A stretch of 64,000 nucleotides of DNA from Macrostomum lignano (Eukaryota). Location: NCBI GenBank assembly GCA_002269645.1, contig NIVC01002355.1, positions 62,001 through 126,000 of the forward strand, in the 5' to 3' direction. Of the stretch, positions 4,030 through 40,505 are shown piece by piece. A program made the translations under genes and the position numbers. The notes under the pieces are model-generated. The model did not search any database and was not told where the DNA came from. It worked only from the letters and a program-made list of their open reading frames with translations. The first letter of the stretch is position 1, and each line of letters starts with the position of its first letter.

Positions 4030-4795
4030 CTAGTTGACGATGGTGTAGAGCTCAAGTTCGCAGATGTTGAGCGATTGCGAGAATCGATGGGCGATCCGGA
4101 ACGTGCTACCAAAGGCGTTGCAGCTAAACGAGCCAATTTTATAGGTCTTGACCTGGTTCAACACGTTGCACACGACGCCGTCCACCTGTAGGTTGACATT
4201 ACTCAGCCGGCCATCGCAGCAATCCTGCCGGTTGTAGATCGTGACGTAGGAGATGAGGGCAGGAGCCGCCAGGTGCGCCTCCCACCAACCGGCGTATCCG
4301 TCGAGGGTATGAGAGCAGGATTTATAGTACAAATTGGGATTCTTGTTTCCGTCGATGGCTCGTTCGCACACGTGGCCGCCCTGATCGGAGCTTTGGTTGC
4401 ACCCGGCGATTTGGAGCATTTCTGAAGGTACGAGAGGATTTTATTTACAAATTATTTTACGTGATTTCAACCTAGAAAGAAGGTTATCACAACATGATGC
4501 CCTCACCGCTCTTTATAGTGTACACATCACACTCATCCGAGCGCTCCCACACGTCACTAAAGAAAGCTGACAAGTCGAAGACGCGGCACAGGCCCTTCAA
4601 CCAGTTGAAGCCGAAGCAATTTGACTTCTTCGTGCAGATTTCTGCGCAGTTCAGTCGGTTGTTGCTCGGCGTGGTTTCTATTGCGACAGGAGCCGAAACG
4701 CTGCGCTGTTTGACAGCAGTGAACACGATTTTGGCATCGAATCGCTCCAAAACGCCAGCAAAGATCAGCAGAAGTAAAAGGTTCGTGCAATGCAT
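4030..4795 (-). CDS. Secreted PAN/Apple + F-type lectin protein, copy 1 (exons 4795-4507 and 4421-4030; 85-bp phase-1 intron)
   Basis: Signal peptide MHCTNLLLLLIFAGV; PAN Cys pattern CAEIC..CFGFNW..LC..W..C..Y; donor G|GTGAGG and acceptor TTCAG|AA join in frame; exon 2 has AIDG, CSHT, WW and an exact HX26RXDX4R fucose motif (H..RQDCCDGR). Confidence 0.9.
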
Positions 4796-11214: not shown

Positions 11215-12013
11215 ATGGCTAGTAACTTTAATAAAGTTATTTCCCTGCTACTCTGTGGCACAGTTCTGCTTGGTGACGTATCGCAGCAGCAGGTTACATT
11301 CAAGCGTTTTAAACAGCGCAGTTTAATCGCTCCAGCCTCCATCGGATCTGCCGCTCTAGACAGACTGTTGTGCGCTGAGCACTGCTCAAAAATACCCAAC
11401 TGCTACGGATTCAGCTGGTTGCTGCATCTGTGCCGATTCTTCAACCGGACAGCGTATAGAACCAAGGCCTGGCATCCATCGGCCAGTTGCGACCTATACT
11501 CTCGGCCACTCGGTAAGGCTTCTGCTGTCCGACGTAATTATTTTGTCTCCTTCAATTAGCTTATAACTGAAATTCCCTTCCTTTCGAATCCCAGTAGACA
11601 GTGCGGAATTGCAACAGCTTGACTTCTCTGGCTGCCAGCAAAGTTCGCAGCGACGCGACGCCTCCTGTGTGCGCGCCATCAATGGAGATGCCAAGCAAAA
11701 CTTCAAGTACGGATCCTGCTCTCACACAAGCGAGCGACCGGAAATGTTTCCAGCCTGGTGGGAGGCTAAGCTGCGGATTGCTGCTCATGTCTCTTTCGTC
11801 ACCATTTACAACAGGCAGGACTGCTGCGCTCACCGTCTCAACAAATTCTCGCTGCAGGTGGACGGCGTCGAGTGCAACCGAGTGAGCCTGAGACTGCCGT
11901 TCTCCGTGGCCAACTTTAGCTGCAATGCTTACGGCAGCCGAGTTCGAATATTGAGCCTGAAAGATGATAGCCTCACTATCTGCGAGTTTGAAGCCTTTGG
12001 ATTCTACAAGTGA
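11215..12013 (+). CDS. Secreted PAN/Apple + F-type lectin protein, copy 2 (exons 11215-11512 and 11595-12013; 82-bp phase-1 intron)
   Basis: Signal peptide MASNFNKVISLLLCGTVLLG; PAN Cys pattern; donor G|GTAAGG and acceptor CCCAG|TA in frame; CSHT...WW...YNRQDCCAHR motif (H-X29-R). Confidence 0.9.
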
Positions 12014-24947: not shown

Positions 24948-25693
24948 ATGCCCTCGAAAACTCTACTCTTAGCTTTGGTGGTCATCCTGGCTGCTCGACC
25001 GTCAACTCAGGATCCTGTTTTTCAAGTGGTAAAAATGGGTGCATCTGAGGCTCCAGCGGTCGCTAAATCCGTGCCCGGCTTCAGTGCGATCGACTGCGCT
25101 ATGAAAGGCGCTGAAACTACTGGCTGCTTTGGCTTTAATTGGCTGCAAAATCTTTGTGGTCTTTTTAACATTAGCTCCTATGAGAATGCCTGGACGGGCT
25201 GCAACAACTGCGACGTTTTTATTCTACCTAGTAAGTAAAATTTTCGACTCATATCTATAACATAGAGATGTAGTTTTGTATTGCCGTATTGAAATTTTCA
25301 GTGCCCCAGAAGAAGAGAGCAGCCAACTGCACGCAGAGTTCCACGTACTCCACTACGAATCACCTAAGCGTTTGCGAGAGCGCGATTGACGGAAACAGGT
25401 CGCAGCTGACAGCTCTCTGCAGCATCACGCAAAATGGTCCAAACGAGTGGTGGGAAGTGGAATTGGTCAACGCTACTTGGATCAAGTATGTCACCATCTA
25501 CAACAGGCAGGAGTGCTGTCAGGAGTGGCTCAACAAATTATCGCTGCAGGTGGACGGCGTCGAGTGCAACCGAGTGAACCTGACGGTGCCCTTCTCCATT
25601 GGAAACTTCAGCTGCAACGCCTTCGGGAGCCGAGTTCGAGTCCAAAGTCTCGTCACAAATTATCTAATTTTGTGCGAAGTTGAGGTATACTAA
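24948..25693 (+). CDS. Secreted PAN/Apple + F-type lectin protein, copy 3, with non-canonical sugar-binding triad (exons 24948-25230 and 25302-25693; 71-bp phase-1 intron)
   Basis: Signal peptide MPSKTLLLALVVILAA; donor A|GTAAGT and acceptor TTTTCAG|TG in frame; F-lectin hallmarks AIDG, WW, YNR.ECC, LCEVEV; CSHT changed to CSIT and the last Arg changed to Trp. Confidence 0.88.
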
Positions 25694-26439
25694 AATTCTG
25701 CGGCATCATTCTTAGTTCGAATAGCTTGTGGCTGAACAATGATTTGCAATCGCTAAATTAGCAAACGTACGAGCGTATAGAATCAAAGAACCGCTTAAAT
25801 TGTAGGTGATATTTTTACTTGTTTTTGTGCACTTCTTAAAAATTTTTATCCTACAACGTATATATCTTCACTCCAACTTAAAGCCAAAAAGTGATAGTCT
25901 TAGATTTCAGCTTTGATATTTTCTACTTTTCTGCTAATTTTAAAAACAAATTATTCTTCTAACCCTTTATTCCACTTCAAACTTTTTTAAGTTTTCAAGT
26001 TCTCAAAAAGTTATTCTACATTACGAGTATTCAATAAAACTGGACTTCGAATAATTCCAACTATATGGATAGCTACGTCAGGACTCCGTCTCAAAAATTA
26101 TTTTTCCTTTACCAGCCGTAGATGCAACCAACTCTGACGCATTCAAATATATAAAAAAAAGTAAAAGCGTGGATTCTTAAGCCTCAATTAAAAATTCCGA
26201 AACGTTGAAGAGTGCTTCAATCATAAATCGACACACCAATAGCCGCTGATTTACCCAACTTACTCGACATCGCTGGGAAATGCTTTTTCACACATTACGC
26301 CGACGAATGCCGAAATTATACGTCAGCTGAACGGCAGTGCAATTTAAAAGTACCAATTTGCTAGCCAAATCGATGTGTTGGAAAGTCGAGAGGTCGGACA
26401 GCGCTGCTGACATCGGATTGATGCACGGGAGTGCATTTA

Positions 26440-27785
26440 CGAGGTGTATTCAAAAAGTTCTTTTCGGTGCCTTACAAAACTGAACACAAAACAACTGGAA
26501 CTATGAAAACACTGTTAGATTGCTTAACATGATTCTGTCACTCAACATATTCACCGCCAATGTCTTTGCACTTCTGCCAGCGATTTACCAGGCCTCTGAT
26601 TCCGGAACTCACACCACTCGCGTCCGTTTGGCGAACAGCTTGATTGCATGCAGCTTCGATGTGCTCGACGCTGTCAAATCGAATGCCCCGAAGGTGCTTC
26701 TTCACAGATGGAAATAAGAAGAAATCGCACGGCGACAAATCAGGCGAATAGGGTGGATGTTGGAGCACTTCCCAGCCCCATTTGCTCAGGAGTTCCACGA
26801 CGTTGTGCTTGCGATGTGCTGGCGCATTGTCGTGCAGCAGGATCACGCCAGATTCCAGCAGACCAGGGCGCTTCTTTCGTATTGCTGGGCGCAGCTTCTC
26901 CTGCAGAATCCACTTGTAGTAGTCCCCATTGACGGTGGTTCCTTGTGGGACTGCCCAGTTCAGCAGGATTCCTTGGGAATAAAAAAACATGACGTGCATG
27001 ATCTTTATCGCGCCCTGCTTCCTGATGGCCTTCTGAGGTCTTGGAGAATGTGCTGGAAGCCATTCGGCAGACTGGGCCTTTGTCTCAGGATCCCAGCTGT
27101 AAACCCACGTCTCGTCTCCAGCAACAATTCTTGATAGAAAATCCTCCCCTTCTCGATGGAACCGACGCAGGTGGCTGCTTGAAGCCAGAGTTCGCTGCAT
27201 CTTTTGCTCACCTGTCAGCAGGTGTGGCACCCACTTGCAGAACTTTTTCTGTAGGAGAAGACGCTCAGTCAGAATAGTGTGGACGCTTCCTACTGACACA
27301 CCAACGTCTTCTGCCAACTCTTCGCAAGTCCGTCGCCGATCATCATCCAAGAGCTCTTGCACTTTCTTCGCAACAGTCTCTTTGGTTGCAGTCATCGGCC
27401 TTCCAGAGCGGCCATTGTCCTCAACGCTCTCTCTTCCCTCAGCGAACAGCCGGTACCATTTTCGAGCTGTCTGCTCAGTTGGTGCACAGTTGCCAAGCAC
27501 TTGCTGAAGCTCCCTAAACATATCCGGTGGCTTTTTTCCTTGCAGAAACTGAAACTTCATCAAGCTTCGAACGTCTTGCTTTGAAAATGATTCAGCCATG
27601 GCCAAGAAATTGAGTGGCAGCTGATAGAAATGTTCGCTGCTCTAACATAGTTGCAAACTGAGACTTAAAACCCTAGGAACGTTTAGGCCATAGACATAAC
27701 TTGGTAAAATCGCTAAAATTCTGTTTACAACGCTTTTTAAAAATAAATGCCAAAGGACCGAAAAGAACTTTTTGAATAAACCTCG
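26440..27785 (-). mobile_element. Full-length mariner DNA transposon (1346 bp), TA TSD
   Basis: ~30-bp TIRs CGAGGTGTATTCAAAAAGTTCTTTTCGGT / CGAGGTTTATTCAAAAAGTTCTTTTCGGT with 1 mismatch; TA at 26438-39 and 27786-87. Confidence 0.96.
26538..27605 (-). CDS. Mariner transposase, DD34D, uninterrupted 355 aa
   Basis: WVPHLL, GDETW, HDNA and YSPDLSPCD motifs with exactly 34 residues between the 2nd and 3rd Asp; N-terminal HTH region. Confidence 0.96.
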   Translation of the reverse strand: MAMAESFSKQDVRSLMKFQFLQGKKPPDMFRELQQVLGNCAPTEQTARKWYRLFAEGRESVEDNGRSGRPMTATKETVAKKVQELLDDDRRRTCEELAEDVGVSVGSVHTILTERLLLQKKFCKWVPHLLTGEQKMQRTLASSSHLRRFHREGEDFLSRIVAGDETWVYSWDPETKAQSAEWLPAHSPRPQKAIRKQGAIKIMHVMFFYSQGILLNWAVPQGTTVNGDYYKWILQEKLRPAIRKKRPGLLESGVILLHDNAPAHRKHNVVELLSKWGWEVLQHPPYSPDLSPCDFFLFPSVKKHLRGIRFDSVEHIEAACNQAVRQTDASGVSSGIRGLVNRWQKCKDIGGEYVE

Positions 27786-29339
27786 TAGCAGTGACAAAAA
27801 TGTCAAGGAGTTGGAATTTCATCGTTGATTGACTGGTAAAAGTTAAAGTTGTGCTGGGTAAGCGTACATGGGGAAGGCGTTGTTTTATTGTTTTATCCTA
27901 ATGCGGTGGTCCCATTCTCATTTTTACGCTCGTATAACTCCCCTCTAGCCTGCAGAAAGGACTGAAAAACGCACAAATGTGCTGAACTGACATTCTTGAA
28001 CACGTAGTCGATCAAAAACGAAATAAACGAGACAGGTAAAGTAGTAGCAAATGTGGTCTGAAATCTTAAAATATAATAAAGTACACTCGTAATAAAATCG
28101 TCCCGAGTTTCTGTCTTGTACGAAAGGGCCTCAGCATTGTGCGATTTAAATGCTGTTTAAGTAAAACAAATAATTAAATACTAAAACAAAGTTCCGTTTC
28201 ACTAGCTCGTATTCGTGTAGTTTTCTATGGATTCTAATGCGAAAACATTACTGACGACAGTAGCATATTGCTAAAGTCTGCCACTTAGTCGGAGCTGTGG
28301 CCTGAAACAACAGAGGGCACTGCTGAGGACTGGGCCAGTTTTGGCTTGAGACAGCATGAGGCGCGAACCTCAGACCAAAAGCAGAATTCAGATAAAAAAT
28401 GGTAAACATATGAGATACATGAAACAGTGGGAGAAATGAGGAAATGTTTGTAATGGTAGCACTTTGTTAAATAGTATACGACTTGGAAAATTAGACATAG
28501 TATGATATATCATCATCGATTTACTTTGACAGCTAGTACGATATGTATTTGTGAAATCGAATTTCTCTATCCTAAATTCACTATAATAAGCGTATTAGCG
28601 ACGGCAAACACCAATGGGAAGCTTTTTGGCAAACGGTAAAACAAATAAAATCAATGTCCAACAGTTCGCACCTGCTTCAATTCAGGCCTTTTACTGGTTG
28701 TTAACTTGCTGTTAACTAGGAGTAAATATCACCCCGTAAAAATATAATTTAAAATTGATTGAAACAGTGGTAAACGAGTAAAGTCGGCGCTCTCAAATTT
28801 AAAAGTTTGCTTTTCATCGGCAAATCATCGTTAAGAGACTTATCGAGTTTGGCGGGGAAAAAACTGAAACCAATAGGAATCGACAAGAATGACAGTATAA
28901 AATAGTTCATTCGTTCTCGTATCTAAAGAGCACTCCACTAAAGAACTTTAGCAAAAATGTGTTCCACAATCCTATTCTCGTGGCTAATACTCGTAATTTT
29001 ATCATTCAACAGCTCGCAGTAGGTCAAGTTTGATTTGGTTAAAAAGGACAGCGGCACAGCTTCAACTGCCATGGAGGCTGCATCAGTCGGCAATAGAGTA
29101 GCCTGTGCAGTCAGGTGTAGCCAACAGACAGCTTGCTTCGGTTTCAGCTGGGTAACGCAATCTGTGCAGGCTGTTCAATGTCAGTGCCTATCTTCGAGCA
29201 GACTGGCAAAATTCATCCAAATGTAGCCTCTACACACGAGCTTACGAAAAAGGTATGCTTTACTAATTGCCGCTGCAAATCGACGCGACAAGAGGCCATG
29301 AGGGAAGCCTGAGGTAGCCCATAGTTTTAGCAATACCCT

Positions 29340-30712: not shown

Positions 30713-31656
30713 AATACCCTAATATAAACAGGAAAACTTGAAAAGTCTGGTTCCGTACAGCAATCCGACGCTACATTTCATCGACGGATATCGACGGATA
30801 AAGACGTCATACGTCGGTTGAACGTCGGTATAATGTAGAAATACATATTTGTCAGCCAACATCGGATTGCTGTACGGGATTCCGTTGTGCGGGACACTGT
30901 TATTGGTATTCTTACGAGCTAGCATCAGTACAAATTAGCATTTACATGTATATGCTCGTATGGTTTAAAACGCATTCCAGAACGCGCTGTTCTACGTACC
31001 ACCGGCTGTAACCAGAGCTCAATGCACACAACGCATAGCTGTGACCTGGCCATCGATGGCAACAGGGACCAGTTCAATTCTAGCATTTGCAGCGCTACAG
31101 AGTCTGCCGCCAACCAGTGGTGTGGGAGATGCAGCTCGCAAAGAAACAACACTTAGCCAACAGGGCCAAAAGCAGCAAGAGGGAAGGCACAGGCGTGGCG
31201 ACAAAGTCAGCGGACGAAACGAGTCCTGCGATAGCGAATATATTTTAGGATTTGAGGCGATTAAAAGGGAAGTCACGAAGCAACGGAATAAAAGCATTAC
31301 AAGAAAATTAATAAAAAAAATTTTACGAGCCAAAGCGCTCTCGCAGCGCGCACGAGAGAGCGTGAGCGCACAAATAAAAGGGGGCCGACGCCGCCCACCC
31401 CCAACCCAACACCCCCGCCTGCCGGCCGGCACCCAGCACCCCACCTTGCGGCAGGGATGCACACGCGCGGGCCGCACGCACAGACGGGCGGAGGGGGCGG
31501 CACCGTCGGCTAAACACGATTACAGAGCCGGTTAAAACCGGCCCCTGAAATCGCAACCTTAGCCAACAGGGCCAAAAGCAGCAAGAGGGAAGGCACAGGC
31601 GTGGCGACAAAGGCAGCGGACGAAACGAGTCCAAAAATCCCAAACCAGGGAGGAGG

Positions 31657-32685
31657 TCACGTTGAGGGGAGGAGTGAAGCCAGGCGCAGCGGCGCACCGC
31701 GCTCAACCGAAGGCGGTAGGTACCGCTCTACAGCGCTGCTTGCCCAGTCACCGACTCGCATGATTGAATCGATGGGGATGCCGGCCTCCGCCGCGGATGT
31801 AGCGCCACCTCGACGCAACGAGTGCCCAGAGAACCTGGCTGGCTCGGCGAACCCGGCCTGTCGAAGTGCCGCGGACAGGCGCCTCGCGAAGGTGCGCGCG
31901 GTGAGCGGTGCGGTGGACCGTCTGTTTCGGGTACTGAACAAGTGATGCTGGGCGTCCTGCGGTCGGTTAATGCGCAGCTGCTTCTGGAGCGCGGTGACCG
32001 GGCAGAGTGGATGTCCGTCTGGGAGCTGCGGCAAGAAAACTCGGTGCTGGCGCGCCCCGAACTGGTTGGTCTTTGACCTCGGAATGACGAGGATGACGCC
32101 CGCCCTTGACGGCCGGATGCAGCTCGCACTGAGGTCTCGCTGCGGATCGAACCGGCCGGATACGCACAGGTTGGCTCGCCGCAGCATGGCCCACCAGCCC
32201 ACGATGCAGGCGCACCAGAATGCGCAGTCCCTGGGCTCTTCAGGTCGCAGCACGCCGTGCAGCCGCTGCAGGTCGGCCGGCCGCAACGCTCGTTTGCTCC
32301 TTGGGGCGGCGCCGAGGAGCCGGCGGGCGCCGCGCAGGGCCAGCTGAACCAGTGGCTGCCTCATCGGGTCAGCCACGCTGTTTGATTTGTAGAGCCAGGA
32401 CACGGCGGCGAGGTGGCAGGATAGGCTGCTGACTGAGAACAGCCGGTTGTTCGCCAGCTCCGCCAGGTAGTTGCACACGTCGGCGGGCTGCGCTGACAGC
32501 GGTTGAAGTCTGTGGGCGGCGCAGAATCGCATCCAGGACGTGCACTGGCTGGCGTAGGCGGAGCGAGTTGAGCTGGCGAAGCCTTGGCTGAGCAGTCGAC
32601 GTGCCGGTGCGGAGAGGCCGGGAACCGGGACCACAGGAGGCGGACCTGAAACAGAAGGTGGGAGGCAGCGGCAGAGCTCAAGCAA
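31657..32685 (-). CDS. Tyrosine recombinase of the Ngaro element
   Basis: Catalytic residues R (AMLRRANL), K (SKTNQ), HSLRRGGA, GDW, and Y (VERYL); ORF uninterrupted but its first ATG lies inside the N-terminal core-binding region. Confidence 0.93.
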   Translation of the reverse strand: MLELCRCLPPSVSGPPPVVPVPGLSAPARRLLSQGFASSTRSAYASQCTSWMRFCAAHRLQPLSAQPADVCNYLAELANNRLFSVSSLSCHLAAVSWLYKSNSVADPMRQPLVQLALRGARRLLGAAPRSKRALRPADLQRLHGVLRPEEPRDCAFWCACIVGWWAMLRRANLCVSGRFDPQRDLSASCIRPSRAGVILVIPRSKTNQFGARQHRVFLPQLPDGHPLCPVTALQKQLRINRPQDAQHHLFSTRNRRSTAPLTARTFARRLSAALRQAGFAEPARFSGHSLRRGGATSAAEAGIPIDSIMRVGDWASSAVERYLPPSVERGAPLRLASLLPST

Positions 32686-32699
32686 GCGGAGGCAAGCAA

Positions 32700-34368
32700 G
32701 CTGGTTGGCACATAGCAGGTGCCATAGAAGCGAAACAGAAAGTTGGCAAGCTGGCTGGGGTCATGCGCTCTGGACAGCGGGTCTGCGAGCAGCTGGAAGC
32801 GGCCAGGCACATGGTGCGCGCGGACGATGATGTCGCGTTGAATGCAGGTCAGGGCGACGCGCTTCTGCAGGTCGGCAATACCTTGGTGCTTGGCGGAACC
32901 CGAGTTAATGATGCCGCAGGCGGCGGTGCTGTCAGTGTAGACTGCAACCGAGCAGCCGCTGAAGGCTTCTTGGTGCTGCAGAATCGCAACCAGCGGGGCG
33001 GCGCACTCCTTGAGGTTGATGTGCAGCTCCTTGAACGCGCCATCACAGTCGGACTGCCAGTCGATGTAGAGCCAAACCGGTTCTCTGTCGACGAAATGCA
33101 GCACAGCACCGCCTCCAATGTCAGGCGTCAGACTCAATCGCTCCAGCCGGCCGACGCGAGGGCCAGGCAGCTCTAGGCGGCAGCGTGCTCAACGCGGTCA
33201 TCCACCACCTCAGCTGCAACTGGAGCTCCTCCGTGACGCCGACCCTGTCGGACGGATGCGCCAGGCTGTTGACCAGCTCGATCAGCGGCCGCAGGAAAGT
33301 TCGCCCGTGCTGGGCGGCAGTGCACAAGTGGCTGAGGTGTCCGAGCAGCTTCTGCAGTTCCGCCTTGCACAGGCTCCTCCGCGAGAGGCAGGTGTCAAGA
33401 AGCTGAAGCTTTTCGGCTTTGTCGGCTGGGAAGGAAAGACTGGCTTGCACGGTGTCGATGTCAATGCCGAGGAATCGCAGCTTTGTCGTCGGCGGCACCG
33501 ACTTTTTCTCGTTGATGGTGAAGCCAAGCCTGGTGAGCAGGTTGCGCAGCTCGTGGTAGGCCCTGTCACACTCGGCTTTCGTCCTGGCCATGACGAGGAA
33601 GTCATCGATGAAAACGACGGTTGCCAGGAACCCCTTGCGACACATCATTCGCCGGGCCGCTTGCGTGAGGCGATGGAAAATGCTGACGGAGGCTCTGCTG
33701 CCGAATGGTAACCGCGTATCCACCAGGAAGGTTGAGCAGCCATTGCCGAAGTCCCAGTGGATGCCGGTGGCTTGGTAGCACTGCGGAGAAATTGGCACGC
33801 TGCGGTAGGCTGACGCGATGTCCACCTTTGCCATAAACCAGCCGGGCTGCATCATCCTGACGGCCTCGTCGACGGAGGTGAAGCGGAGACGCCGTTGTTG
33901 GGCATAGTGATCGTTCAGGCTGCAGCCGCGAGGGACGGAGCAATCATGGATTAGCCGGATGCCGGAGCTGTCTTTCGGAATGGCTCCCAGCGGACAGACC
34001 ATCGCAGGCTTGTCCACGACTGGGACGTACCTCCCGAGCCGGATTTCTTCTCCGATAACAGCTTGGACTTGGTCGCGATTCCGGTTGACGGACTGGTAGT
34101 TGCTGCAGAGACACGGCGTAAAGTCGAAGTCATCGACAATGGAGAAGCCGCTCTCGATGCCGTCGAGAATAAAATCAGCGTCGGGGTCGCCCACAAGCTC
34201 GGAGCGCCAGGCGTCGATGCAGAGATCGCCCACTGGCTGCGTCAGATCGGACATCCGCACTGGAGGCTTGACGATGCAGGGCACGGGAGCGGGCTGAGCG
34301 AGGCAGTTAAAAGCAGGAGGGGTAAAATCGGTTTCGCGCGCCGTGTCGGCGCGCTTGCTCAGTTTTTT
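32700..34368 (-). CDS. Pol (reverse transcriptase + DIRS-type RNase H); one frameshift at ~33125
   Basis: RLIHDCS, KVDIASAYR, RLPFG, FIDDFL and FLGIDID in RT; ESDA/DIGGGAV...HINLKE...YTDST...HVPG..QLLADPLSR in RNase H; frame is open back to the slippery site at 34368. Confidence 0.92.
34336..34368 (-). promoter_or_regulatory. Putative -1 programmed ribosomal frameshift signal
   Basis: A_AAA_AAC heptamer (34368-34362) directly before the gag TGA; 7-nt spacer; perfect 8-bp GC hairpin GCGCGCCG-ACA-CGGCGCGC (34354-34336); the -1 frame is the RT frame. Confidence 0.75.
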
Positions 34369-35376
34369 GCGTGATTTTGCTCGGAGTGGCTGCCCTCACA
34401 GATTCGGCAGGCATGGAGGAATCGGCAGTTGCTCCTCATGCAGCCGTTGGTGCTGTTGAAGGACAAGCACAGCTCGCGGCCTGAGGATGTCCGCGGACCC
34501 ATGACGCGGCTCTTGTTGCTAGGCTGGTTTCGCTTGGCTGTCTGATTGTACTGGTCCGTCTTAATGCTGAGCAGGTGCCTGATCGACATCTGGGCGCAGT
34601 CTTTGCCCCAGCGAAGGCTGTTGGCTGCGCGGTGCTGGCGGTAGTCATGGTCGAATCTGATGAATCTGGTGCGCTGGGAATCTGTCGAATAGCTCGGCCA
34701 CCTGGACATTGTACTGGGCGTAATCTTTGACTTGCTCAGTTGTGCTGTACACTTGGCCCTTACTGGTCACCTGCGGCGCTGTGTCTTCAAGTATCTGAAG
34801 CAGGACCTTCATACTGCCGGCGAACCACTGCCCAATTGTCATGCCGTCCAGCTTGGTCGTCGACTTCTTGAGCACGAGGCCGCCAGAGCTGCCCCTGGTG
34901 AGCAGCTCGTCAGCCTGGCCTGACAGATCATTGACAAAGTCTCTGACGAGTAGACACGGCTGCCCGACCGGCCGGGGGTTGGCTCTAGCGCTGACGGGGC
35001 CTGTTGGGTTGATAAGTTCAGCGAAAAGATTCTGCTGCTCACCTGATTCTGTACGAGCAGTCACGACGGCGCGTTCACGAAGCTCTCGCTCGCGTGTTTG
35101 AAGCTCTAGGAGCTGCAGCCGTTTCTGCGCCCGCCGAATCTCGCCGTCCAGGTCCGCCTCCCGTGGGTCCCGGCCTTGGTCTTGGAGCTCCTCCTGCGCA
35201 CAGGGCGATGCCGATGCCGATGTCAATGCCGATGTCCCGCCGTCTTGAAGCTGTGACTGCCCCTCGTGTTGTCTCAGTCTGGCTTGCAAGGCCGACTTAT
35301 TGCCTGCGGTTGAGAGGCCTCAGCTACCCAGCTCACTCTTGAGTTGTTTGACTGTTAGTCGGTCCACACGATGCAT
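34359..35376 (-). CDS. Gag (ORF1): N-terminal SAP domain, coiled coil, C-terminal Cys/His finger; disrupted by TGA at 35322-35320 and a +1 shift at ~34660
   Basis: MHRVDRLTVKQLKSELGS*GLSTAGNKSALQARL fits the SAP consensus; CLSFNSTNGCMRSNCRFLHACRICEGSH is a DIRS/Ngaro-type Gag finger. Confidence 0.82.
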
Positions 35377-37130
35377 GATAGACAGAGCCAGAAAGTCGCA
35401 AAAAAAATTTACGAGCCAAAGCGCTCTCGCAGCGCGCACGAGAGAGCGTGAGCGCACAAATAAAAGGGGGCCGACGCCGCCCACCCCCAACCCAACACCC
35501 CCGCCTGCCGGCCGGCACCCAGCACCCCACCTTGCGGCAGGGATGCACACGCGCGGGCCGCACGCACAGACGGGCGGAGGGGGCGGCCCCGTCGGCTAAA
35601 CACGATTACAGAGCCGGTTAAAACCGGCCCCTGAAATCGCAACCATCAAGTACGTCACCATCTACAACAGGCAGGACTGCTGCGCTTAGCGGCTCAACCA
35701 CTTCTCACTGCAGGTGGACGACGTTGAGTGCAACCGAGTAAACCTGACGAAGCCGTTCTCCGTGGCCAACTTCAGCTGCAACGCCTTCGGCAGCATGGTC
35801 CGCGTGCAAAACTTGCAGGCTACATTTCTTAACGATTTGAGGGTTTGAAATTTAGGACTAGAGCATGCAAATGTCGTCACCAACAATTAAACTTACTGAA
35901 CAAAATAATTTGAAATACATGTAGTAATGTCCGATTTTATTATAATCCTATGTCGTTGTCACATAGAGATTCCAATTTCTTAACGTTAACGTAAATGCGC
36001 TTTAACGAGTCACTACCTGAAGCGAACAAAAGTTACAAGAGTATGTTTTAAAAAATAAATATTTTTGGTCACTTACCTTGAAACTCGGGGGTAAGCAAAC
36101 AATTTTAAATTAAGGGCCAGATACAGAATCCAGCTCATGACTGCAGACCAGAGAGAAGAGAAAAAGAAGAGAGGGTAAAGTGGGGAGATGAGAGAGGAGA
36201 CGGGAGAGGAGGGAAGAGAAGAGAGAGGGGAGATGGGATATGAGAAAACAGAGGGAGAAAAGGAGACAGCTAAGAACAGACACAAGACTTGAGCGGACCC
36301 GAATCGCTATTGTGAAGTTTTAAAGTGCTGTGGCTATAAGCCAAGCCGAACCATAAACAAAATGGTTTGCCTCCCAGCGCACCGTACGCTTTAGCAATCT
36401 ACGTGTAACGAGAGCAAGCTAGGCTTGCAGAAATAAATATATAATGAGACAAGAGTCGAAGATCGGCTGGTTTTAATTTAGTCTTAAGTTCGTGACTTGT
36501 TCCTTTGACTTGTCATAAAAACAAAAGACACAACACAAAGGACCCGAGGGCCGTATAGAGAGGCTTCGTGGCCGCAGGCCGAAGCTTGCCGGCCGACCCC
36601 TGTTTTAAAACAAAGCTTCTAAAATTCTAAAGTGCAAGCATGAAACCAAGAAAAAATTTGGAAATATATAATTTACTATGTTACAACAGCCTCTGCAGAG
36701 AGTACTTGAATCGTCGGACTGATTCATAATGAGATTTATTCGGAATAGGAAGATGTTATTTTTGTTTAAATACCGTTAATAAGTTAAAAACGAAGGATTT
36801 AGAATACTGCATATAGCTTGTTTGGAAAGAAGACTATGACCATGGTAAAAAGCCAGTCGAAAAAATTTTATCATGATTAGTTACTGCAAGTAGAAAAGTA
36901 ATGTATTAACATGCATTCATAGTGGCCAATCAAAATCCAAGGTCATCCAAGCAAATGTAAAGCGTTCAAACTTTATCAATTATAAAGGCAGAGATCAGAA
37001 ACAGACGGAATATTCAGGCTTTTTCAGGAATCTACAACTGAAATTATTCATAAAACCGAAGTTGACTAAGTGGTTAATCATGCGAAATAAAGTTATAATA
37101 CTTCTATTCCTTTCTGCCAGTAGAATCACC

Positions 37131-38614
37131 ATGGCAACCATTGCTACTATACCTATTTAATCGTTAAATCCAGCAGCCCAGTTGCTCCCCCATCGATGGA
37201 GGAGGTGGTGCAGGACGAAAACCCGCTGTTTTGCGCTAGAAAATGCACGAATCAAGTGTTGGGCTGCTTCGGCTTCAGCTGGATCCAGGGACTGTGTCAG
37301 TTCTTCAATCTCTCCGCGTTTTATAATTCGACTTGGGACAAGTGTGATGCTGTTGACTGCAAATTCGATGTTTACAAGAGACATTTCGGTGAGCTTTGAT
37401 CAAAATAATGACACGAATATAGACAATTGGAGTAGCAACAGTAGACAAATTGGCCGCGGCCCCCAAAAAAATTGCGCTACACGAAAACCTCCAAAAACTG
37501 CATGATAAGGCCCACCACGCAAGCTCGACGAATCGCAGTGCCTACACTTTTGTTACTTTTTGGACATGGCATCAACCGGTCTAAAAGACAGGCTTGTGGC
37601 ACTTACCAAGAGCCAGGGACACCCACCAAGAGACAGGGGGCTCTCACTAAGAGACAGGGGCGCTCACCAACGTTCTGCCAGAATGTCTTGTTTTTCAATA
37701 AGCGCCCATGTGTTCCATACACCTAGTGTACCAATCAGCACTATGCCTCAGTGCGGTCTTGTCAAGCTTTCAAATTTCATTAGCACGCCGATCTCTGACT
37801 TTGGCAGCCACTGCCAGCAGCCTTATCCAAATCTTCAAAAAATAGCACCAGGGTGCTATGGACACCGACCTGCTGTGGACTATGGCACAGATGAAGCCTC
37901 GACAGTGTGCAAATCTCAACTGCGAGTTGCTTTCAACAGTTTCTTAAGTACTCAGTCATCACCCCGACGCCGTCGGCACCTTCTGCAGGTAGCCGTCTTG
38001 GCAAAATCATTGACTATCTGAACGTTCCAGATAGCTAGCGACATCAAGTTGCTCCTTTGCTCCGTTCAGGAGCAGCAAAACTTTTCTAGAGAGGGGGGGG
38101 CGAATTTTACTTTGTATAAAAAACGCGGCTTTTTTTTGTACTTTTACTGTTAAAAACTGTGTAAATAACTCCTAAATCTCATGATGGCTAAAATAATCAA
38201 TCCCGCTATCAAATCTTAGAACCGCGTCGTTTGAACACTTCAAACTGCGAGCAGAGCAGCCTGATTCACGATGGCGTCTGCACTCGAGCTATAGACGGCA
38301 ACACTGGCCAAGATTACACCACGGGATCCTGCTCCCACACTGAATACGGCTACGGCCAGTGGTGGATAACACAAATTTCTGCTTCTGCTCTTGTTTCCTA
38401 CGTCACCATCTACAACAGACAGGACTGTTGCGCCTACCGGCTGAGAAAATTCTCGCTGCAGGTGGACGGAGTCGAATGCAACCGAGTGAACCTGACGGAG
38501 CCGTTCTCTCTAGCCAACTTCAGCTGCAACGCCTTCGGCAGCCGAGTTCAGGTGCAGAGCCTTCTGCCATATGCTCTTACAATCTGTGAAATAGAGATTT
38601 ATGGGATTGTGTGA
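37131..38614 (+). pseudogene. PAN + F-type lectin copy 5; intact exon 2 and PAN core but broken signal-peptide region (exon 1 to 37388; exon 2 38220-38614)
   Basis: ATG at 37131 stops after 9 codons; in-frame ORF from 37196 encodes FCARKC..CFGFSW..LC; phase-1 intron 37389-38219; exact HX26RQDCCAYR motif. Confidence 0.75.
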
Positions 38615-40164: not shown

Positions 40165-40505
40165 GGACACTGTTGAAAACCTATCGACGGAAGCACATGC
40201 AAGTCAATTTTTGGGGGATCGTGCAGCCACACTCTACAAGCTGGAAATCAATGGTGGGACGGTGAGAGGGGCAGCTGGCCGCTATATCGTTTTGTCTCTT
40301 GCGTCACCATCTCAACGGATTCTCTCTGCAGGTGGATGGCGTTGTGTTAACCAAGAGAACCTGACGGAGCGGTTCTCTAGCTGTGTGGCCAATTTCAGCT
40401 GCACCGCTTTCTGGAGCACAGTTTAGTACAGAATCTGCTACATGTACATGCTACAGTAGTTGATGCGCTGAACATTTGCGAGGTGCAAAACTATGGACTT
40501 TACGT
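40165..40505 (+). pseudogene. Highly decayed F-type lectin exon 2 relic
   Basis: Recognisable pieces ATCGACGGA (IDG), GGATCGTGCAGCCACACT (GSCSHT), CAATGGTGG (QWW), GTCACCATCT, CTGCAGGTGGAT, GCCAATTTCAGCTGC, ATTTGCGAGGTG (ICEV); many indels. Confidence 0.8.

Follow-up and report, generated by a model that had tools for sequence, protein, structure and literature searches.

A predicted −1 frameshift signal at the gag–pol junction of a Ngaro-type retrotransposon from Macrostomum lignano

Structure of the element

The window, a stretch of 64,000 nucleotides from Macrostomum lignano (contig NIVC01002355.1, positions 62,001 to 126,000), contains on its minus strand an element spanning 35644-31152, with the order A1, ORFs, B1, A2, B2. 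Its parts are as follows:

35400..35644, minus strand: split direct repeat A1, forming the element's 5′ end (245 nt, with 99% identity to 31314-31558)
34359..35376, minus strand: gag-like ORF1 with an N-terminal SAP-like domain and a C-terminal Cys/His zinc finger
33121..34395, minus strand: reverse transcriptase (RT) part of the pol frame (RVT_1, E 1e-16), broken near 33121 in the window copy
32361..33188, minus strand: RNase H part of pol, which in the window copy stands in a different frame from the RT part
31657..32760, minus strand: tyrosine recombinase (YR) ORF (Phage_integrase, E 9e-9; Phage_int_SAM_4, E 2e-6)
31558..31632, minus strand: repeat B1 (75 nt, 99% identical to 31152-31226)
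31314..31558, minus strand: repeat A2, partner of A1
31152..31226, minus strand: repeat B2, the element's 3′ end, partner of B1

The gag-like, RT/RNase H and YR ORFs follow one another in that order on one strand, with weak matches for gag (SAP, E 2e-4, under the curated cut-off) and for the RNase H part, where RT_RNaseH at E 0.055 is the only Pfam match at E ≤ 0.1. The "TDA" motif of the RNase H part and its downstream consensus agree with the RT alignment that was used to find relatives (below). Among the five element ORFs scanned, no family match to DNA adenine methylase was obtained at E ≤ 0.1, and the absence of this methylase is the criterion that sets Ngaro apart from DIRS1 and PAT. By its split direct repeats, its ORF order and the missing methylase match, the element fits the Ngaro type as defined in the available text of PMC3783388 and PMC3266345. 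The arrangement (gag, RT/RNase H and YR; A1...B1-A2-B2; no methylase) is that described for the Ngaro superfamily of the order DIRS (PMC3783388, PMC8547959, PMC9210276, PMC3266345), with the difference that a gag-pol expression signal is not given in the accessible portions of those descriptions.

The element splits an exon that encodes an F5/8-type-C, lectin-like domain (window 30971-31120 and 35639-35815), domain residues 7-57 matching one flank and 66-124 the other. Further domains of this type, some of them broken, lie at 4036-4434, 11606-12004, 25304-25690, 38192-38611 and 40165-40500. Adjoining the element's 3′ end is a minisatellite that extends from 29311 to about 30600 and consists of 21-nt units, with a 20-nt unit at about every sixth copy and a higher-order period of about 125 nt. 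Two 36-nt inverted repeats, 1.3 kb apart (26438-26473 and 27752-27787), possibly belong to a small DNA transposon.

The window copy is broken at three places: by an early gag stop at 35322-35320, by a frame break near 34662-34667 and by the break near 33121, which is private to this copy. For comparison with family members, contigs from four of 24 listed public runs (X1, X3, X5, X6) were set against window positions 33000-35500. In the deepest contigs of all four runs the junction region 34336-34370 is unchanged and all three breaks differ from the window; every difference is accounted for in the contigs of X1, X5 and X6, and one difference in X3 is unlisted. The RT frame is open near 33420, where the family contigs carry an in-frame indel. 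Because the deep contigs keep the junction and differ at the breaks, the −1 offset between gag and pol described below is the form of the family and not decay of the window copy, which is itself unable to make Gag-Pol because its gag is broken upstream. A separate observation concerns record 4 of run X1, in which a run of 28 foreign letters abuts the gag zinc-finger region at an acceptor-like site (about 34452-34455); their source does not lie in the window and is possibly another copy or a spliced-in host exon.

The gag–pol junction of the window copy

Three features lie at the end of gag:

34362..34368, minus strand: slippery heptamer A_AAA_AAC, an X_XXY_YYZ sequence in gag phase, conserved in relatives
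34359..34361, minus strand: gag stop codon TGA, immediately 3′ of the heptamer
34336..34354, minus strand: 8-bp all-GC hairpin (−16.7 kcal/mol), a candidate stimulator, not general in relatives

The C-terminus of gag reads N-H-A-K-N-stop on the minus strand, and the pol frame lies at −1 relative to gag, open from 34395 to 33124 (424 codons). The initial annotation had described a slippery heptamer ending gag, a perfect 8-bp all-GC hairpin 7 nt behind it and a −1 frame that would open into the RT ORF after a slip, and had read the transframe peptide as NHAK(N/K)LSKRADTAR. All of this is borne out, as is the ATG about 10 codons into the RT ORF, which at 34254 is the first of the pol frame (10 codons past 34284). 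The stem pairs 34354-34347 with 34343-34336 around a 3-nt loop. A_AAA_AAC is also the heptamer of the MMTV/HTLV gag-pro junction.

In the coding region of the element this heptamer is the sole strict one in any frame; the whole element holds 11, the 10 others all in its non-coding ends. Ten of about 4,470 25-mers in the element fold as well as the junction hairpin, six of them being the hairpin itself and four lying in the terminal A repeats, and in the coding region it is narrowly the most stable 25-mer (−16.7 vs −16.2 kcal/mol for the next). Taken as 30 nt, the hairpin has a z of −3.0 against dinucleotide shuffles; the stability of the wider 131-nt junction region is not unusual (z −1.18). 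The class of the heptamer and the distance to the hairpin fit the general definition of −1 frameshift sites, with a spacing of 5-9 nt, in the available text of PMC3542737.

Junctions in related elements

Relatives were sought with an RT alignment of 47 sequences as query. Of 238 metagenome matches the best 80 were taken, and prokaryote assemblies supplied a further 11 loci; a search of viral contigs with the RT alignment returned no relative. Three loci were dropped for lack of an RT anchor, which left 89 rows including the window, and after removal of 8 rows without a gag zinc finger 81 were classed. In this sample pol lies in the −1 frame in 43 rows, in the same frame in 29 and in the +1 frame in 9. 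Exactly one stop separates gag from pol in 28 of the same-frame rows, and the remaining one (L062) is fused. After clustering at 85% RT identity, with L057 and L073 (both with short RT) and L062 (fused) left out, 71 non-redundant rows were obtained: 37 in −1, 25 in the same frame and 9 in +1. L060, a close relative of the fused L062, has UAG-G at the junction. Loci L081-L089 are Ngaro-type contigs within prokaryote assemblies (Sedimenticola, Ca. Thiodiazotropha and Flammeovirgaceae bins) and are probably contaminating host DNA.

A strict in-phase heptamer occurs in the last 15 gag codons of 33 of the 37 −1 rows and of 1 of the 34 others (1/25 same-frame, 0/9 +1), an enrichment with a Fisher p of 1e-14, a value that ignores relatedness among rows that are not phylogenetically independent. 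The background in gag bodies is 37 of 1356 windows. In the other two phases the −1 rows carry a heptamer in 0/37 (phase 0) and 6/37 (third phase) cases. If GGA is allowed as XXX, 34 of the 37 rows have a reachable site, which is A_AAA_AAC in 27 of them and lies 0-2 codons ahead of the gag stop in 25; L009, L046 and L074 are without one. Phase and position are kept at about 47% RT identity. The choice of codons is likewise specific to the junction, Lys-Asn being spelled A_AAA_AAC in 28 of 35 gag-tail cases vs none of 26 in gag bodies. In a tight clade of seven rows the heptamer varies and stays slippery-like (G_GGA_AAA, G_GGU_UUU, G_GAU_UUU, G_GAA_AAC, A_AAA_AAC). A long-branch clade of four loci (L073, L074, L075, L078) has pol in −1 and no heptamer.

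For a second data set, the 28 proteins whose N-termini are long enough were taken from 120 homologous RT proteins. At the position of the signal 15 of them show KK, as the A run would be read in the −1 frame (control windows, 16/600), 3 show VFV, the print of the +1 signal (control windows, 1/600), and 10 show neither.

Downstream of the heptamer we found no general structure in the relatives. Mean folding energy there shows no excess (MFE z −0.09, n=34; synonymous-shuffle z −0.14), hairpins of −10 kcal or better occur in 6/34 rows downstream vs 3-4/34 upstream, and crude pseudoknots in 53% vs 41%, as scored by a rough heuristic that covers nearby pairings only. RNAalifold gave no consensus structure in a 15-row clade; a 7-row clade yielded just a distal hairpin, in which a single, doubtful pair covaries. 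The hairpin of the window is the strongest among 68 rows, and the linker that holds it exceeds that of most relatives by about 100 nt; it may therefore be a local solution or due to chance. RT identity between the window and its nearest relative in the set is 53%; the contigs of the family are near-identical. Because the relatives have no enrichment of near hairpins or pseudoknots, a role for the hairpin is plausible for the window family only. The heptamer of the initial annotation is conserved in relatives, and the deep family contigs carry the whole junction unchanged; a near hairpin is not enriched among the relatives. In all three classes the last 60 nt of gag before the signal show a weak excess of folding (synonymous-shuffle z −0.4 to −0.7), which may mark an upstream element or else follow from the Cys/His codons.

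The rows in which pol is not in −1 have junctions of two other kinds, neither of them noted in the initial annotation:

Same frame, single gag/pol stop (mostly UGA-C or UAG-G): L001, L019 and 26 more loci
+1 frame, UUU_CGU at the gag/pol junction: L002, L016, L017, L031, L036, L039, L047, L048, L072

Among the 25 non-redundant same-frame rows the stop is UGA-C in 10, UAG-G in 10 and UAA in none, vs 4/46 for the two contexts together and 18/46 for UAA at other gag stops; of the stops at pol/YR, 19/97 stand in those contexts. UUU_CGU is present in gag phase within the overlap of all 9 +1 rows, mostly inside CGU_UUU_CGU, and in 0/62 others; in gag bodies this spelling accounts for 4 of 45 Phe-Arg cases. 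The alternatives used by these relatives are likely a leaky stop codon or a forward-slip signal, as judged from their sequences.

On a quick, unrooted RT tree the three junction labels need 11 changes (shuffled mean 28.2), and well-supported branches force at least 4 changes for the −1 class and for the stop class. Rows of the −1 and stop types interleave, and a single clade of stop rows is rejected at a p-AU of 4e-10; a branch with a support of 90 sets the +1 rows apart from the rest. Across the group, −1 slippage and stop readthrough have likely replaced one another repeatedly at the junction, with likely a single switch to +1 slippage at UUU_CGU.

Expression of the recombinase

Two candidate splice sites join gag to the YR ORF:

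35037..35045, minus strand: splice donor in gag, exon ending at 35043, phase 1; the only donor of the element scoring ≥5 with a rough matrix
32645..32665, minus strand: splice acceptor at the YR ORF's start, exon starting at 32645, phase 1; the best acceptor of the element

A 49-nt contig (record 28 of run X6) joins 35070-35041 to letters identical to 32643-32625. This GT-AG junction, 35043|32645, places 328 YR codons in frame behind 111 gag codons; the evidence is this one contig at depth 19, from a run whose kind is guessed. With splice-site matrices that are our own rough approximations, an acceptor-like site (score ≥5) was found at the YR start in 34 of 43 rows, in phase 1 in 32 of those 34, as compared with 2, 0 and 4 of 43 in control windows. 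The best gag donor has the phase of the acceptor in 20 of 25 rows, a match of little weight as runner-up donors are often in phase 1 too. The frame relation of pol and YR varies (23 in −1, 15 in +1, 3 in frame; a few rows are mis-parsed on permuted contigs), and no strict heptamer was found in any listed −1 overlap of pol and YR. Poulter and Butler 2015, as quoted in the available text of PMC13003380, had suggested that the YR ORF is expressed by frameshifting; here, by contrast, the slippery site is at gag/pol, and the junction with YR appears to be spliced.

Discussion

We propose that the heptamer at the end of gag is very probably a programmed −1 frameshift site that gives a Gag-RT/RNase H fusion. 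On the unspliced RNA most ribosomes would stop at TGA and release Gag, and a smaller share, with tRNA-Lys and tRNA-Asn at A_AAA_AAC, would slip and continue as ...AK(N/K)LSKRADTAR into RT/RNase H. A separate spliced RNA (intron 35042-32646) would give Gag(N)-YR, in which the first 111 gag codons are joined to YR. The sequences themselves show the anatomy of the junction, its frame relations, the conserved phase and codons, an unchanged junction in deep family contigs and one spliced contig; the slip itself, its frequency and any help from the hairpin are what we infer from them; that the GC hairpin stimulates the slip is predicted with little better than even confidence.

Pol could instead be made alone from ATG 34254, by an internal start, by reinitiation or from a shorter RNA, with the heptamer being incidental. 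The ATG does stand ahead of the conserved RT start, and the initial annotation had listed it as an alternative start. However, a conserved pol ATG was not found: any ATG between the signal and the conserved RT start is present in only 14 of 68 rows, and among the 120 homologues the annotated start lies anywhere between 2 and 58 residues ahead of the anchor. In the near-identical L074 and L078 the heptamer is replaced by an AUGA overlap of stop and start, but a stop-restart there was not upheld, as the AUG is missing from their sisters L073 and L075. An internal start would also leave the codon-level selection for A_AAA_AAC unaccounted for, and we regard it as improbable.

That gag and pol are joined by splicing, like the recombinase, is a shade less credible. 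The element does splice, as the X6 contig indicates, a pyrimidine-rich stretch ending in CAG can be seen by eye near 34300, and UAG-G is also acceptor-like. Yet acceptors scoring ≥5 precede pol in only 1/37 −1 rows, 3/25 same-frame rows and 2/9 +1 rows vs the 34/43 at the YR start, the site near 34300 scores below 5, and UGA-C, which makes up half of the stop class, is unable to serve as an acceptor. The four runs list no joint that spans the gag-pol junction, a weak argument since contigs drop rare forms.

The A run itself invites the explanation that RNA polymerase or RT stutters on six A residues and adds a base, with no ribosomal slip: among the 34 reachable sites, 27 read A6C and another 2 read A6U. 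Stutter should ignore codon phase, yet none of the 37 sites is in phase 0, variants such as G_GGU_UUU, G_GAA_AAC and C_CCA_AAA are without a long run, and no added base is listed at 34362-34368, as far as contigs tell; we give this explanation very little credence. That active copies have gag and pol in one frame, the −1 offset being decay with a chance heptamer, is next to negligible: the window copy has its three other breaks and L062 is fused without a stop, but the family contigs contradict it and the offset is common to 43 of 81 classed rows.

Programmed −1 frameshifting at the end of gag compares most directly with that of retroviruses and LTR elements, for which a general definition (PMC3542737) and a 2003 survey of LTR elements, as summarised in PMC5009743, were available in part. 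The likeness consists in the in-phase X_XXY_YYZ sequence at the gag end, a spacer within 5-9 nt and, in the window copy, a stem. The difference is that the window element is without LTRs, protease and DDE integrase, and its relatives without detectable near structure. For the stop class, UGA-C corresponds to readthrough type II (alphaviruses) and UAG-G to type III (gammaretrovirus gag-pol) in Table 5 of the available text of PMC3542737. These contexts account for 20 of the 25 stops, but they are seen in relatives and not in the window, and a 3′ structure was not detected. The UUU_CGU of all 9 +1 relatives resembles the UUU_CGN motif of +1 frameshifting in influenza A PA-X and plant amalgaviruses (available text of PMC5052127), with the difference that here it stands, in relatives only, at a retrotransposon gag-pol junction.

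Recoding mechanisms and the Ngaro superfamily are themselves already known. Our literature search found no report of such recoding signals in Ngaro/DIRS elements, though an earlier remark in the primary Ngaro literature is possible. None is given in the available portions of PMC8547959, PMC3783388, PMC6681497, PMC3266345, PMC9210276, PMC7192593, PMC9341512 and PMC5009743, the last of which leaves the DIRS order unmentioned in the first 300,000 of its 449,034 characters.

Taken across the group, we consider it likely that the Gag:Pol ratio of Ngaro-type elements is set by recoding, mostly without detectable near structure, that a single lineage has repeatedly exchanged the mode (−1 slippage, readthrough at UGA-C/UAG-G, or +1 slippage of the PA-X type at UUU_CGU), and that Gag-YR is made in addition by splicing. 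The expression of overlapping ORFs in tyrosine-recombinase retrotransposons has so far been largely guesswork; the sequence data place recoding at gag/pol with exact sites and suggest splicing for the recombinase. For annotation this means that a stop or frame break at a Ngaro gag/pol junction should not count as decay. Three modes of recoding at one homologous junction, with at least four forced switches, would be a rare comparative system for the replacement of signals, and the UUU_CGN motif for +1 slippage, which we found described for RNA viruses only, would be extended to a retrotransposon. If the proposal is true, a retrovirus-like plan, with a recoded pol and a spliced third gene, would operate in an element that bears no LTRs, and its relatives would constitute a natural library of interchangeable signals.
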